Position numbers and translations under genes: made by a program. From the NCBI GenBank assembly GCA_902499925.1, contig GCA_902499925.1_4130.1: a stretch of 64,000 nucleotides of DNA, one strand, 5' to 3'. The notes below the pieces were generated by a model. It was not told the origin of the DNA. It searched no databases and worked only from the letters and a program-made list of their open reading frames with translations. Source of the DNA: Escherichia coli. GTDB taxonomy: Bacteria; Pseudomonadota; Gammaproteobacteria; Enterobacterales; Enterobacteriaceae. This document shows, piece after piece, positions 31,095 through 50,289 of the stretch; position 1 is the first letter of the stretch, and each line of letters opens with the position of its first letter.

Positions 31095-31180
31095 TACACC
31101 TATGCACCCTGTGGGCTAGTTTTTGTCTATGCGTATATAATAGCAAAGGGACTGACCGGAGTCAATCCCTTTTTTTATTC
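31095..31180. repeat. Copy A of ~90-bp intergenic repeat (GCACCCTGTGGGC motif + AAAGGGACTGACCGGAGTCAATCCCTTTTTT hairpin)
   Basis: Near-identical copies at ~33350, ~36615 and ~40624. Confidence 0.6.
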
Positions 31181-33349: not shown

Positions 33350-33438
33350 TATACACTTCCGCACCCTATGGGTCAGTGAGTTATCTCTCAATGAATATAT
33401 AATAGCAAAGGGACTGACCGGAGTCAATCCCTTTTTTA
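33350..33438. repeat. Copy B of ~90-bp intergenic repeat
   Basis: GCACCCTATGGGTCAGTGAG...TATAATAGCAAAGGGACTGACCGGAGTCAATCCCTTTTTT. Confidence 0.6.
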
Positions 33439-36123: not shown

Positions 36124-36399
36124 TTAATTATTGTAAATGTCGTGAATAGTGATAAAGTTTTTACGACCGTAAACCTGCAAATCAATATCAATGTAGTGCT
36201 TATCTAGTACATCCTCGACGCTTAACGCGGTGTCGTGGATATCTTCGTAGAATTGAGGATCTACAATCTTGCTTAAGTCATCCGGCGTTAACTTATCGTT
36301 AAGCCATTGAACCGCCTGGATATCTGCTTCACGTTTCCAGTCTTCCAGGTTAGTAGTCAGTACTTGTTCGATTTCGTTAGCTGTCAGTAGAATCCGCAT
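36124..36399 (-). CDS. Hypothetical protein
   Basis: 91-aa ORF downstream of tandem promoters and structured leader. Confidence 0.65.
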   Translation of the reverse strand: MRILLTANEIEQVLTTNLEDWKREADIQAVQWLNDKLTPDDLSKIVDPQFYEDIHDTALSVEDVLDKHYIDIDLQVYGRKNFITIHDIYNN

Positions 36400-36423
36400 T
36401 TTTATGTTTCCTTATCAGTGGTT

Positions 36424-36600
36424 GATGTAAGTATTATACTCTTTTACTTTCTATTGTCAAACTATTTTATCAGGGGAGGTTTTCTTATGTCTTACTCCTG
36501 GACTACTTAACGGGGTTACTTGTTTCGTTCCCCGTCCTGATGTAAAACATTATACTTGATTCTAAGTACAATGCAAGTACTTTTTTAAAAATAGTTTTCA
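36424..36600 (-). promoter_or_regulatory. Tandem promoters flanking a ~70-nt conserved structured leader element
   Basis: Two TTGACA/TTGCAT-N16-17-TATAAT promoters; between them CAGGACGGGGAACGAAAC...CCTCCCCTG, repeated at ~46925-46998. Confidence 0.5.
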
Positions 36601-36614
36601 GTACTAGCCACCAG

Positions 36615-36706
36615 CATATAATAGATACATTTATGCACCCTGTGGGCTGATTTGTTTCTATGCGTATATAATAGCAAAGGGACTGACCGGAGTCAATCCC
36701 TTTTTC
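36615..36706. repeat. Copy C of ~90-bp intergenic repeat
   Basis: TATAATAGATACATTTATGCACCCTGTGGGCT...AAAGGGACTGACCGGAGTCAATCCCTTTTT. Confidence 0.6.
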
Positions 36707-36714
36707 AATTATTT

Positions 36715-36864
36715 TTAAACTTCTTTCGGGTTGCGATAGGTGATAGCGTTCGGGTACATTTGTTTAATGTTATTCCATGCCTGGTTAACATTGTAACCAC
36801 TTGAGCGAATCAGTTGGTTACTACCGACACCTTGAAACACTACTTCGAATAAGAATTCTTTCAT
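36715..36864 (-). CDS. Small hypothetical protein (~49 aa), not in ORF track
   Basis: ATG overlaps stop of upstream gene (ATGA); translation MKEFLFEVVFQGVGSNQLIRSSGYNVNQAWNN... Confidence 0.45.
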   Translation of the reverse strand: MKEFLFEVVFQGVGSNQLIRSSGYNVNQAWNNIKQMYPNAITYRNPKEV

Positions 36865-40623: not shown

Positions 40624-40727
40624 TTATATAATAGATACACTTATGCACCCTGTGGGCTAGTGAGCTATCTCTCAATGAATATATAATAGCAAAATGGCTG
40701 ACCGGAGTCAACCACTTTTTTCATTTA
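40624..40727. repeat. Copy D of ~90-bp intergenic repeat
   Basis: TATAATAGATACACTTATGCACCCTGTGGGCTAGTGAGC...AAAATGGCTGACCGGAGTCAACCACTTTTTT. Confidence 0.6.
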
Positions 40728-43446: not shown

Positions 43447-43929
43447 TTATGCTTCAACTTTGCGATGAGCTTCGATCCATTCCTCGCGAGTCATACCGCT
43501 GGAGTTAATCGCATCCAGTACTACAGCAATGCAGTTACCACGCACCGGAATCAGATATTCTTCCCCGTTGTCCAGTACTACCGCTACGCGTTCCTGAATC
43601 CATTTTTTTGCTTTTACTTCTGGCTTATCTTCCCCGTACTTAACCGCCAGGGCTTTTTGTGCCATCTCTGTAACTACTTCCAGATCCAGCCCAACTACTG
43701 CCGCCTGAATACTTTCAATTGTTGCTTGCAGTTCTGCTTCACGGGCCGCTTTCGCCGCTTCAATTTCTGCCGCTTTATTTGCTTGTAGTTCTTTCGCAGT
43801 ACTGTACGCGATGTTAAAATTATTGCGTACCGCTTTCATGGTATCGTTGTCCAGTTCAGCCAGGATCTCAGCCGCGACGTTAGTTTCATTTGCTACCAGT
43901 GCTTTGATGAATGATTTTACATTAGCCAT
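43447..43929 (-). CDS. Hypothetical protein with Ala/Glu-rich predicted coiled-coil region
   Basis: Start at MANVKSFIK; central 'AKELQANKAAEIEAAKAAREAELQATIESIQAA'. Confidence 0.7.
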   Translation of the reverse strand: MANVKSFIKALVANETNVAAEILAELDNDTMKAVRNNFNIAYSTAKELQANKAAEIEAAKAAREAELQATIESIQAAVVGLDLEVVTEMAQKALAVKYGEDKPEVKAKKWIQERVAVVLDNGEEYLIPVRGNCIAVVLDAINSSGMTREEWIEAHRKVEA

Positions 43930-44134
43930 TTTATAAATCCTCAATTAAAGTTTAGTTTACGTTTATTAGTGTATCAAAGTTTTCTCGACGTGTCCAGTTT
44001 TTCGTTCGACTTACTGGCGGTCTACTTAGTGCTCCCCGTCTTGATGTAATACATTCTACGCCTTTTTGCGGTAATGTCAACTACTTTTTTTAAAACTATT
44101 TTCAAAGTATCTCAGTACTACGATACTATAAAAA

Positions 44135-44161
44135 CAAAAAAGCCCACTGTATAAGTGGGCT
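44135..44161 (-). terminator. Rho-independent terminator
   Basis: AGCCCAC-ttataca-GTGGGCT followed by T-run on minus strand, 3' of gene 44179..44478. Confidence 0.6.
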
Positions 44162-46241: not shown

Positions 46242-46853
46242 TTAATATTCGATTGATTCTACTACGCCATCAATAACATTGAATTGATATTCGTTACCCT
46301 CAATCAGTGCCGTAATGTTTTCAGTACTGAATTGATCCTCATATGCATTCTCTAAATCACGGTACAACTTGCGGGATAATTCACGAATAGTTTCAGTGAG
46401 TAGTTCCTCAAGCTCATTAACTAACGTTTCTTGTTTTGCGGTTAAATCAGTGTAAGCCGATTCAATGTACCCGCTTACAGTGTTTTCGTGTGAGTAGCGA
46501 GATTGAGAACGCTTTACACTCATCGCCAAATCATCTTCATTCAGCAGGTGACGGATTGAGCGATACTTAGTTAATGCTCTTACCTTGCGTAAAAACTTCA
46601 CTGCGTCAACGTGGTCAGTACTGATTGATGCACCGTCACCCTGGGACCAAAAACCACTGAATTGTATTTCAGCGTCATTAATGCCATATTCCGGTAATAC
46701 TGTTTCTTTATAGTATTCGATCACTGACTCAGAAAAGAAATCATCCCCGCTTGAACGTTCACGTTCCCGAACCAGTTCGATAGCTGACGTTTTTTGTTCT
46801 GCGTTCAATTCAGAAAAATCCATAACATAAGTAGTAGTAGTGATAGTTTTCAT
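46242..46853 (-). CDS. Hypothetical acidic protein
   Basis: 203-aa ORF; tandem promoters plus structured leader upstream. Confidence 0.7.
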   Translation of the reverse strand: MKTITTTTYVMDFSELNAEQKTSAIELVRERERSSGDDFFSESVIEYYKETVLPEYGINDAEIQFSGFWSQGDGASISTDHVDAVKFLRKVRALTKYRSIRHLLNEDDLAMSVKRSQSRYSHENTVSGYIESAYTDLTAKQETLVNELEELLTETIRELSRKLYRDLENAYEDQFSTENITALIEGNEYQFNVIDGVVESIEY

Positions 46854-46879: not shown

Positions 46880-47035
46880 GTAAGTATTATACGCTTTTAA
46901 AAACATTTGTCAAACTATTTTATCAGGGGAGTTTTTCGTGTGCCTTACTCCTGGGCTACTTAACGGGGAGTTACTTATTTCGTTCCCCGTCCTGATGTAA
47001 AACATTATACGCCTTTAAACATAGTTTGCAAGTAC
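46880..47035 (-). promoter_or_regulatory. Tandem promoters flanking second copy of ~70-nt structured leader
   Basis: Same arrangement and near-identical element as 36424-36600. Confidence 0.5.
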
Positions 47036-47078: not shown

Positions 47079-47107
47079 TTGACAGCATTATCAAGTACTG
47101 GTATAAT
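47079..47107 (+). promoter_or_regulatory. Plus-strand consensus promoter (TTGACA-N17-TATAAT)
   Basis: Followed at ~20 nt by CCCACCGGGTGC; no plus ORF downstream. Confidence 0.5.
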
Positions 47108-47281
47108 ATATCCCATGACAACAGCTAACCCACCGGGTGCACAATTGTAACTATACTAAACTAATTTTTCTATAGATACACTCCCGCACCCTATGGGCTA
47201 CGGCTTATCTGCCAATGAATACATTATGCCAGTACTGACAAAATAAGTCAATACCGGCAATTGTAAAGATTTGTAAACTGC

Positions 47282-47512
47282 TTATACTGCAATCGCGTCC
47301 AGGCTATAATAATAATAAGTGCCGTATTGGTGTACTTTATTACCTTTTATTTCAGTACTGAATGAATCCGAACGATTGGCATATGATGTTAATTTAAAGT
47401 ACTTTGATTTGCTGATACGTTGCCATACACCGCAGATCCGCTGTAAGTAAGTAGTTTTATTAGTGGTAGTATCTTTTACGGTTTTAACTTCAGTCATATA
47501 CATATTGGTCAT
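47282..47512 (-). CDS. Hypothetical protein
   Basis: 76-aa ORF; AAGGAG upstream. Confidence 0.55.
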   Translation of the reverse strand: MTNMYMTEVKTVKDTTTNKTTYLQRICGVWQRISKSKYFKLTSYANRSDSFSTEIKGNKVHQYGTYYYYSLDAIAV

Positions 47513-49036: not shown

Positions 49037-49474
49037 TACTACATAGACGCGAGAAAGCGGATACCCCAGGGGGTGGGAAGATCCGTCCAAAATTCATAAA
49101 ATTTAAAAAGGATACACTCCCGCACCCTAGCAGGTCAAAGCACTTTCTCAGTACTGAAATATAGTACCATAGTCCGGCCCAGGATAGCAAGCAAATTAAT
49201 TAAAACTTTTTGCTTCCAGGGTATTGCTTTATTTTTCCAGTACTGTATAATAGTTCCATCAAGTCGAGAAAGACTCAAGCCCACCGGGTGCATAGTTACG
49301 CCCAAAATTCAGTACTGAAAAAATTTTTAAAAATATCCGTCCAGGCCGTTGACATTGCCCCCAGTTTATAAGATAATGATTCCAGATTCAGAAAAATCTA
49401 ACTCCAGATACTGCGGGGAAACTATCCCCACGCGGTAGGGGAACTATTGGAAAAAACAAAATAAAATTTTGATT

Positions 49475-49620
49475 TAGCCGTCTATACTTCCAGACGTGTA
49501 ACCATCTAGCCGTTTAGCCGTCCAAACGTCTAGCCATCCAGCCATCCAGAAATCTAGCCGTTTAGCCGTCTAGATGGATAGCCATCTTTACTTCCAGACT
49601 TCTGGAGGGCTAGACATATC
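49475..49620. repeat. Cluster of short direct repeats (TAGCCGT / CCATCCAG / TCTAGCC), iteron-like
   Basis: About ten TAGCC(G/A)T-type units within ~150 bp in ORF-free region. Confidence 0.6.
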
Positions 49621-50289
49621 TACGTCCAAAATCCATCCAGGGTAACTACGCCCAAAATCCGTCAGTACTATACCATAGATCTATCTTTTGAAAGGGAGTA
49701 TTCAGTACTGCCATCATAGCCCTCACTATGTTACCCTAGGAGGATGAAGACTATCATGTAGTACTGAATACTGTTAGAGGGAATCCACCAGCTTGTGCTG
49801 GTGGCATAATGCTTTAGATTAAAATCAGTACTGATACCATTCTGTTAATACCAGTACTGTTATTACGATTTTCATATGAGGTTCAAAAAGATGTACCACC
49901 ACAGGAGGAACTATCTTTTCTGTACTGTCTCACGACAGGAGGTAGAGTAAATGAATTGTTCGCAGCAACTCATCTCTCTATGTAGAACATTATACAGTAC
50001 TGAATCATAATGTCAATAACTTTCTTTCACCATTCAGTACTGATATTCTTGAGAACTACCCGACTACAAACATCATTATATCCCACAAATCATAAACGTC
50101 CCAACGTAAATTTCAACTTTCGAAGATCCAACTTTTATTTCATAGGTACTCCAAAATTTTTAGGATCGAGATTTAGGATGGAGTACTAACCAACTTTTTG
50201 CTGGAGCCTCAAGGGGTAATGGAATTTTACCCCGAAGGGTAAAGGGGTAATTGAAATTAAGGTGAAAGTAATAATTCAGTACTAATCAT

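Follow-up and report, generated by a model that had tools for sequence, protein, structure and literature searches.

What is the structured leader that recurs between tandem promoters in this stretch of DNA, and what might it do for the phage that carries it? The stretch, 64,000 nucleotides (nt) of contig GCA_902499925.1_4130.1 from an assembly filed under Escherichia coli (hereafter the window), is by its sequence part of an Asteriusvirus jumbo coliphage of the PBECO4/121Q/G17 type. In a BLAST-type search, 43 phage records matched a 1-kb query around the element at 94-98% identity; the records among the matches listed are 310-386 kb long, and those fetched are Asteriusvirus (PBECO4, 121Q, G17, phAPEC6 and others). 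In related records with annotated terminal repeats, the element region lies inside the direct terminal repeat. A first-pass annotation, made from the letters alone, had described a conserved structured leader at two minus-strand sites, each between two promoters, and read it as a regulatory RNA leader or a protein-binding operator. We find that this module is very probably a conserved structured RNA, homologous to the leader that lies between the early promoters A1 and A2 of phage T7. The annotation had missed that homology, as well as a third copy of the module, a pseudoknot at its center, and the generic nature of the stem that it had singled out.

Three copies of the leader

Both leaders reported earlier, here called copies A and B, were recovered where they had been placed, on the minus strand. 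A 25-nt core, CAGGACGGGGAACGAAAYAAGTAAC, occurs exactly twice in the window (36515-36539 and 46970-46994; 0 expected from 100 shuffles), and the two copies match from the UP/-35 region of a distal promoter (P1) to the start of the 5' untranslated region (UTR) of a proximal promoter (P2), except for both promoter spacers and a handful of positions. Promoters were called by consensus match. Each copy lies between a P1 and a P2 of the sigma70 type, and both distal and both proximal sites are strong sigma70-like promoters with an A/T-rich run upstream.

In copy A, P1 (36549-36576; -35 TTGCAT at 36571-36576, 16-nt spacer, -10 TATAAT at 36549-36554, A/T-rich upstream tract) precedes a leader at 36465-36545 that comprises a first hairpin (P0), the pseudoknot and a closing stem. 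The leader scores 109 bits with our leader covariance model R1 and has a minimum free energy (MFE) z score of -2.5. P0 (36510-36535; ACGGGG...CCCCGT, 6 base pairs (bp)) starts 12 nt after the -10, the pseudoknot core spans 36475-36506, and the match to a second model of the core, R2, covers 36471-36512 (54.9 bits). Then follow P2 (36433-36460; TTGACA-16-TATAAT), with no hairpin in its 5' UTR, and a gene for 91 amino acids (aa) at 36124-36399. The interval first assigned to the element, 36424-36600, contains the leader and also includes both promoters; the transcribed leader would be about 36465-36545. Copy B is organized alike, with P1 at 47004-47031 (TTGCAA-16-TATAAT), the leader at 46918-47000 (R1 113.9 bits; MFE z = -2.8), P0 at 46963-46990 (ACGGGGA...TCCCCGT, 7 bp, from sequence and folding), the pseudoknot core at 46928-46959, the R2 match at 46924-46965 (56.7 bits), P2 at 46886-46913 (TTGACA-16-TATAAT) and then a 203-aa gene at 46242-46853. 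As their z scores indicate, both leaders fold better than shuffled sequences, with a predicted closing stem AUCAGG/CCUGAU, the first hairpin and a GGAG/CUCC hairpin. In both, the next -35 follows the end of the R2 match after an A/T-rich stretch of 10 nt. The 7-bp stem ACGGGGA/TCCCCGT given for the element is exact for copy B; a 2-nt indel between the copies, which the earlier consensus string had written as a substitution, leaves 6 bp (ACGGGG/CCCCGT) in copy A. Transcription would start at the distal promoters, and the expectation that only distal-promoter transcripts carry the leader fits the promoter geometry that we read from the sequence.

The element is not confined to these two sites, as had been thought. 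Run on the window without filters, R1 identified a diverged copy C at 43983-44044, also on the minus strand (E = 6e-4; R2 56.2 bits), that lacks the 3' arm of P0. Its promoter (44053-44080; TTGACA-16-TAGAAT) lies just 3' of an intrinsic terminator at 44141-44161. Downstream there is only a degenerate promoter-like site (TTGATA-17-TAAACT), followed by a 160-aa gene with its ATG at 43929, and the transcription unit is this one gene, ending at a terminator. Copy C keeps the unpaired stretches UAAGUAGNCC, GUAAG and ACGAAAAAC of the other copies, and has CCAG/CUGG in place of GGAG/CUCC, so that the AGGAG of copies A and B is gone. Its pseudoknot core is at 43994-44025.

A hairpin followed by a probable pseudoknot

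The module consists of P0, a 4-nt linker (U/A)UAA and a compact H-type pseudoknot, whose helices S1 and S2 are interleaved in the H-type order S1-5', S2-5', S1-3', S2-3'. In the alignment, loop 1 has 1-2 nt, loop 2 reads (A)UAA, and loop 3, a 6-nt, conserved A-rich GAAAAA, runs across the 6-bp S1; these lengths are compatible with an H-type pseudoknot. From 5' to 3' on the minus strand, S1 5', S2 5', S1 3', loop 3 and S2 3' are GUAGUC (36501-36506), GGAG (36495-36498), GACAUAA (36485-36491), GAAAAC (36479-36484) and CUCC (36475-36478) in copy A. The same parts are GUAGCC (46954-46959), GGAG (46948-46951), GGCACAC (46938-46944), GAAAAA (46932-46937) and CUCC (46928-46931) in copy B, and GUAGAC (44020-44025), CCAG (44014-44017), GUCGAAC (44004-44010), GAAAAA (43998-44003) and CUGG (43994-43997) in copy C.

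The first-pass annotation had proposed covariation with homologs as a check, and this analysis carries the case for an RNA: two interleaved helices are kept by compensatory changes. Helices were tested on 21 and then 34 distinct sequences. Model R2, which defines the motif, consists of a (U/A)UAAGUAGNC flank, the 4-5 bp S2 helix and the loop UAAGNCNNACGAAAAA; S1 was left out of this search model, and its pairing is therefore an independent check. S2 appears as GGAG/CUCC, CCAG/CUGG, CCUG/CAGG, CUUG/CAAG (seen twice, in unrelated backgrounds) or CAAGC/GCUUG, plus one U-G variant. Of its five pairs, four show two-sided changes; wherever both sides have letters, the inner four are standard. S1 pairs GUAGNC with GNC-N-UAC, the 3' strand of which lies inside the S2 loop (GUAGUC/GAC-A-UAA in copy A, GUAGCC/GGC-A-CAC in copy B and GUAGAC/GUC-G-AAC in copy C). 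Its middle pair (11-24) is A-U in 25 of the 34 sequences, U-A in 6, C-G in 2 and other or unpaired in 1, and the three window copies have all three forms: U-A in A, C-G in B and A-U in C. The U-A form arose in Asteriusvirus and again within Kayfunavirus. Across the 34 sequences, 94.4% of cells are paired, compared with 80.5% in shuffles, and the covariation score of 0.341 (0.098 +/- 0.018 in shuffles) was reached by none of 500 shuffles, a control that overstates significance in that the sequences are related. When the partner columns were slid by 1-3 positions, pairing fell to 20-38%.

P0, too, differs between groups in compensatory ways (CCGG/CCGG, CCGGG/CCCGG, CCUGG/CCAGG, CCUAG/CUAGG, CCAC/GUGG, GGGAUG/CAUUCC and ACGGGGA/UCCCCGU). 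In copies A and B and most relatives this hairpin closes 1-2 nt ahead of UAAGUAG, unlike in copy C and its lineage.

These changes also bear on the AGGAG that had been noted inside the leader without a start codon. No ATG, GTG or TTG follows it in any of 17 unique variants (17/17), just as reported. As a conserved Shine-Dalgarno (SD)-like feature it does not stand: its GGAG is one strand of S2, and relatives have CCAG, CCUG, CUUG or CAAGC there, always with a matching partner. The same replacements led us to reject a STAB-SD-type 5' stabilizer or an SD/anti-SD leader. With no start codon, and with stem changes that would rewrite any peptide, the module is not protein-coding. A coding relic was set aside as well, given the absent start codon and the lack of relatives with an intact open reading frame (ORF) among 50,697 phage records.

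On the plus strand, an antisense 7-codon ORF (ATG or GTG...TAA) follows a GGAGG at 36477-36500 and 46930-46953. Every close variant has this ORF, which is probably incidental to the conservation of the RNA sequence. We rejected it as a coding element; compensatory stem changes would rewrite its peptide, and no plus-strand promoter was seen reading into it.

The module in T7 and other phages

The wider family was reached through copy C, the copy found with the covariance model. In BLAST, copy C matched T7-like phages of Yersinia and E. coli at their left ends, one member of the Vequintavirinae, and the jumbo phages Munch, 7t3, SE_PL, PHA46, fENko-Kae01 and Hallingskeid. In T7 the homolog lies at nt 548-590, between the annotated starts of the E. 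coli-polymerase promoters A1 (498) and A2 (626). The A2 -35 starts 2 nt past the last helix of the module, and in our context scan the -35 of the T7/T3 type overlaps the last 2 nt of the motif. R2 scores T7 at 59.7 bits and T3 at 63.9, next to the 54.9-56.7 bits of the window copies (E about 1e-11). The T7 interval (nt 498-626, with T3 and phiA1122 counterparts) shares with the window the strong sigma70 promoters in tandem at the first-expressed end of the DNA, and a hairpin, UAAGUAG and pseudoknot core of homologous sequence. Also shared is ATCGAGAGGG, an initial transcribed sequence that is identical in T7 A1 and several promoter cassettes of the window. The two differ in that the T7 module has an extra 5' hairpin ahead of it, lies some 50 nt away from the A1 start and abuts the A2 -35, whereas in the window it stands at the canonical hairpin position, and in that T7 has one copy while the window phage has three.

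The core is also found in T3, Kayfunavirus, Elunavirus, Caroctavirus CR8, LIMElight (between the first two annotated host promoters), Munch-like jumbo phages, Vequintavirinae and Justusliebigvirus. The conservation in relatives on which the earlier description depended is thus borne out across unrelated phage families, with compensatory changes. With the phiA1122 A1 leader as BLAST query, 588 phage records matched, many over the core only, and the motif is present in 27 of 80 T7-like loci fetched via the RNA polymerase gene, some with a polymerase only 58% identical to that of T7. It is always in sense orientation, 19-97 nt after the upstream -10, and lies -2 to +38 nt from the next -35. In the copy C lineage and in EJP2 the downstream promoter is degenerate or absent and the pseudoknot is kept; within the copy C lineage, the pseudoknot is 92-100% conserved and the next promoter has decayed.

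In the bacterial and archaeal genomes searched the motif was not found. Strict patterns retrieved only a few near-identical Asteriusvirus copies from IMG/VR and a metagenome collection and no copy from one genome of each of 185,579 bacterial and archaeal species, and blastn against 5,426 complete E. coli genomes gave no match. We therefore rejected an origin in, or mimicry of, a host sequence. The module has probably moved horizontally between phages.

Comparison with known RNA elements

The search of Rfam-type covariance models that had been recommended identified no family. There was no match at gathering score in the whole window and nothing relevant at E up to 10 in 36380-36720, the leaders of T7, phiA1122, T3 and Munch had no match at E up to 1, and none of the pseudoknot riboswitches (preQ1-I/II/III, SAM-II, guanidine-III) or small ribozymes reached the gathering threshold. 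An intrinsic terminator or attenuator was rejected: no U-tract follows the hairpin, none was flagged within the leaders, and the only terminator-like site near copy A (36676-36703) is upstream of P1. A boxA-type antitermination partner was rejected also, with matches in the window no more frequent than by chance. In the searchable literature, which does not cover older T7 papers in subscription journals, we found no description of an RNA element between A1 and A2, and no function reported for that T7 segment. The hairpin-plus-pseudoknot module therefore looks undescribed, and an earlier description in those papers is possible. Tandem early promoters and promoter/stem-loop cassettes are already known; the new part, on the present comparison, would be the module between them.

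A proposed function and its alternatives

On balance, we favor the following proposal: the module is a mobile, self-contained non-coding RNA that engages a component of the host, with a slight lean toward action in trans. It would make up the first 65-80 nt of the RNA that the sigma70 RNA polymerase of the host produces from a strong immediate-early promoter, and it would act as a folded RNA, not as a coding sequence, ribosome-binding site or DNA operator. It may then engage RNA polymerase or sigma, Rho, RNase E, the ribosome or a defense sensor. Acting in trans, it would be an abundant early RNA, a decoy or binder, of which this phage supplies three doses. That it is a self-contained, host-directed module is suggested by its recurrence in unrelated virulent Enterobacterales phages together with its variable distances to start site, promoter or gene. 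We put the chance that its partner is a host component at about even. The lean toward trans, itself tentative, comes from the variability of the context and from copy C, the unit of which is a single gene ending at a terminator.

Action in cis, the main alternative, is rather unlikely, though only a little less likely than action in trans. On this explanation, the nascent hairpin and pseudoknot would act on the very host RNA polymerase that has made them as it crosses the next promoter, by releasing sigma70, by preventing sigma-dependent pausing or backtracking at the downstream -35/-10, or as a put-type or anti-Rho leader, and only transcripts from the distal promoter would behave differently. 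The constant sense orientation 19-97 nt past an upstream -10 fits this. So does the downstream side, where a sigma70-like promoter (at least 9/12 matches, within about 110 nt) is present in 40 of 45 distinct contexts and its -35 overlaps the end of the motif in the T7/T3 type; moreover, each P1 of the window, preceded by a terminator or a long intergenic region, opens a new transcription unit. However, the distance to that promoter varies from -2 to +38 nt, the pseudoknot outlasts the promoter in the copy C lineage and EJP2, the copy C unit has one gene before its terminator, and the window holds no boxA-like partner. Also against it is that in T7 RNase III presumably releases the A1 leader by a cut at R0.3. 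A control at the level of DNA, with the module as an UP element or protein operator of the downstream promoter, would explain why a TTGACA -35 nearly always follows the motif and why T7-type phages have the A-tract GAAAAA at about -46 to -41 of A2, which we take to be the place of the proximal UP subsite. The distance from A-tract to -35 is very different in other groups, though, and recognition of double-stranded DNA would not need complementarity to be kept in two interleaved helices, and the pseudoknot outlasts the downstream promoter where that has decayed. Thus, of the two readings offered by the first-pass annotation, the structured RNA stands, and the operator is quite improbable.

An explanation without function is improbable too. 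The leader could be a relic, a cassette of the PeSL type (described below) that has lost its ORF and consists of promoter, hairpin, SD and what remains of a small ORF after its deletion. Recombination between promoter modules would have left it behind, and it would be conserved only by recent spread and gene conversion, with the second promoter as its sole effect. The hairpin, AGGAG and spacing do fit the canonical cassette, with ACG or AAG at the position of the ATG. Mosaicism is extensive: both leader copies are identical in UE-S1 (12035 and 21948), copy B of 121Q mixes features of A and B, two metagenome contigs (L007/L008) have exchanged the P1 spacer, and the same leader precedes different genes in muut, EmilieFrey, outra, A73, A7_1 and 121Q. 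Leader diversity in Asteriusvirus is similar to that of flanking DNA. We had considered the contrast between conserved leader and diverged promoter spacers as a sign of selection; because the spacers are exchanged by recombination, it is no evidence of selection on the leader, and we dropped it. Yet no progenitor with an intact ORF was found among the 50,697 phage records, and the TAG at the 3' end is not conserved. Moreover, phages as far apart as T7, LIMElight and Munch keep the core through compensatory changes, which neither drift nor recent transfer explains. The relic accounts for the local layout and not for the family-wide covariation, a weakness that the operator or UP element shares. 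Finally, a ligand-sensing pseudoknot like the preQ1-I riboswitch in size and topology is highly improbable. An H-type pseudoknot of 34-36 nt whose loop 1 is short and whose loop 3 is A-rich resembles small riboswitch aptamers in topology only. No Rfam family matched it even at E up to 1-10, however, it lacks a linked expression platform of the terminator or start-site kind, and its downstream context is variable.

Several observations weigh against our proposal of a self-contained, host-directed RNA. A large T7-like clade (69-70% RNA polymerase identity; L052-L095) is mostly without the motif, which only L061 has, and although some of its loci may not include the left end of the genome, this implies that the module is dispensable there. 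The sigma70-like promoter present downstream in 40 of 45 contexts may mean that function is tied to it. The promoters themselves are consensus matches, and the binding partner is a list of candidates that we infer. As to the fold, and besides the relatedness of the sequences, covariation in S1 concerns one pair only, and S1 pair 9-27 is unpaired in 8 of the 34 sequences. S1 and S2 could be alternative rather than simultaneous folds; that both form together is suggested by the geometry of the model. Among close relatives, 16 unique variants have no compensatory change and only three one-sided changes, G-C to G-U, in the first hairpin (P0), so that support from covariation comes from the wider family, not from the close relatives of copies A and B. 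Lastly, leader variation in Asteriusvirus is no lower than in adjacent intergenic DNA, and the copies are homogenized by gene conversion.

Relation to known phage leaders and cassettes

Two small phage RNAs invite comparison with the module. The 5' leader of the T4/T2/T6 gene 32 mRNA contains a small H-type autoregulatory pseudoknot that is bound by the gene's own product. The window module, likewise an H-type pseudoknot of small size, has a similar place toward the 5' end of its leader, but it has no sequence similarity to that of gene 32, and it precedes unrelated genes or another promoter where the gene 32 pseudoknot belongs to one gene. To our knowledge, the phages that carry the module share no gene 32-like binding protein. 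The put RNAs of HK022, about 70 nt long and located just past early promoters, act without phage proteins on the host RNA polymerase that has transcribed them. They form two stem-loops that bind RNA polymerase and in cis suppress terminators farther downstream, as opposed to a hairpin and a pseudoknot, and we know of no sequence similarity between put and the module. Copy C, with a unit of one gene and then a terminator, lends no support to a role in antitermination.

The closest relatives in layout are the PeSL cassettes. In T4-like phages, from which they were described, many small ORFs of unknown function are each preceded by an SD, a GGGG..CCCC stem-loop and a strong sigma70-like promoter whose upstream tract is AT-rich; the cassettes were shown to mediate modular gene shuffling (Arbiol et al. 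2010, PMC2839356; Comeau et al. 2014, PMC4122927). Our leaders have both the sigma70-like promoter with AT-rich tract and the G-run/C-run stem-loop, ACGGGG(A)/(U)CCCCGU. In PeSL cassettes the conserved modules serve as recombination points, and they may do so here as well: mosaics consistent with it (swapped spacers, different downstream genes, gene conversion) are seen in the relatives of the window. The leaders differ from PeSL cassettes in that their distal cassette has no ORF, with no start codon after its AGGAG. The PeSL stem-loop usually overlaps or precedes the promoter and is a proposed terminator, whereas P0 lies in the 5' UTR at a fixed 12 nt past the -10 with no U-tract and, from the terminator scan, would not be a terminator or attenuator. 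Moreover, the PeSL description includes no pseudoknot, and it concerns T4-like phages, not Asteriusvirus, T7-like or V5-like ones.

The surrounding early region

At about 30-50 kb of the window, the minus strand carries an array of small ORFs, each with its own consensus sigma70-type promoter (TTGACA or GTACTTGCAA, then N16, then TATAAT). Between 30500 and 48800, at least 20 early promoters have a hairpin 12 nt past the -10, an SD and the ATG of a small ORF, and from its sequence this array resembles PeSL cassettes, here in a phage that is not T4-like. The class of the distal promoter P1 (family D1) was found at 18 window sites, and about 20 of 23 window promoters of that class have a GGGG..CCCC hairpin starting exactly 12 nt after the -10, followed by SD and ATG. 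P0 of the leaders keeps the same +12 register, with a loop of 11-14 nt as against 3-4 nt in the cassettes. The promoter-proximal stem that the earlier description had pointed out is therefore generic to window promoters and not special to the leader. As read from these sequences, the early region is a set of promoter/hairpin cassettes that probably recombine at conserved modules. The genes downstream of the leaders had no Pfam match and only PHROGs families of unknown function, the 203-aa product of gene 46242-46853, the sole one compared with solved structures, had no match among them, and the window contains no tRNA or tmRNA.

Other repeated features accompany the array. The motif AGCCCAYAGGGTGCNNRAGTGTATC recurs on the minus strand 5' of some early promoters, including both distal promoters of copies A and B, at 33350-33367, about 36645-36667, 40634-40651, 47175-47192 and 49111-49128. 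A search allowing three mismatches gave 4 copies (0.01 expected); the copy at about 36645-36667 was seen by eye in the alignment only. A terminator-like hairpin, AAAGGGATTGACTCCGGTCAGTCCCTTT, is present on the same strand as three identical copies (31145-31172, 33407-33434, 36676-36703) and a variant (40691-40718), each with an embedded promoter-like TTGACT-17-TATTAT with TG extension; these repeats could be combined terminator and promoter modules. On the plus strand, a perfect consensus promoter (47079-47107; TTGACA-17-TATAAT, TG extension, A-rich upstream tract) is antisense to the early genes and aimed at the 3' end of gene 47282-47512, and a weaker counterpart is at 36595-36622. At the upstream edge of the early-gene array, 49479-49630 is an 8-nt periodic repeat of CGTCTAGC-like units; it recalls arrays of short repeats close to T7-like genome ends, such as the (acctacagtcaac)3 annotated in CR8. 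Farther on, the plus strand of 55380-64000 holds a tandem series of at least eight paralogous genes at intervals of about 1.2 kb, each starting MLPFVRM.. and with a conserved TATAAT/AGGAGG region upstream.

Implications

Taken one step further, the module may represent an unrecognized class of mobile RNA, a hairpin and H-type pseudoknot of about 60 nt that captures or re-programs a host component, although we suggest this with reserve. Such an RNA would be made first, from the strongest host-polymerase promoters of T7-like, jumbo Rak2-like, V5-like and phAPEC8-like phages, and its candidate targets, put forward with the same reserve, are sigma70/RNA polymerase, Rho, RNase E or an immune sensor. 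The early promoter region of T7 has been a standard transcription template for decades; a conserved pseudoknot there, which jumbo phages and other myoviruses also have, would, if true, be a functional RNA that has gone unnoticed. The relevance of the module extends to phage engineering and to how synthetic early-expression cassettes are designed. That the bacterial genomes searched lack it agrees with a host-directed reading, and its spread across unrelated virulent Enterobacterales phages points to a host-directed role at the onset of infection, which may be in transcription takeover, RNA fate or counter-defense.

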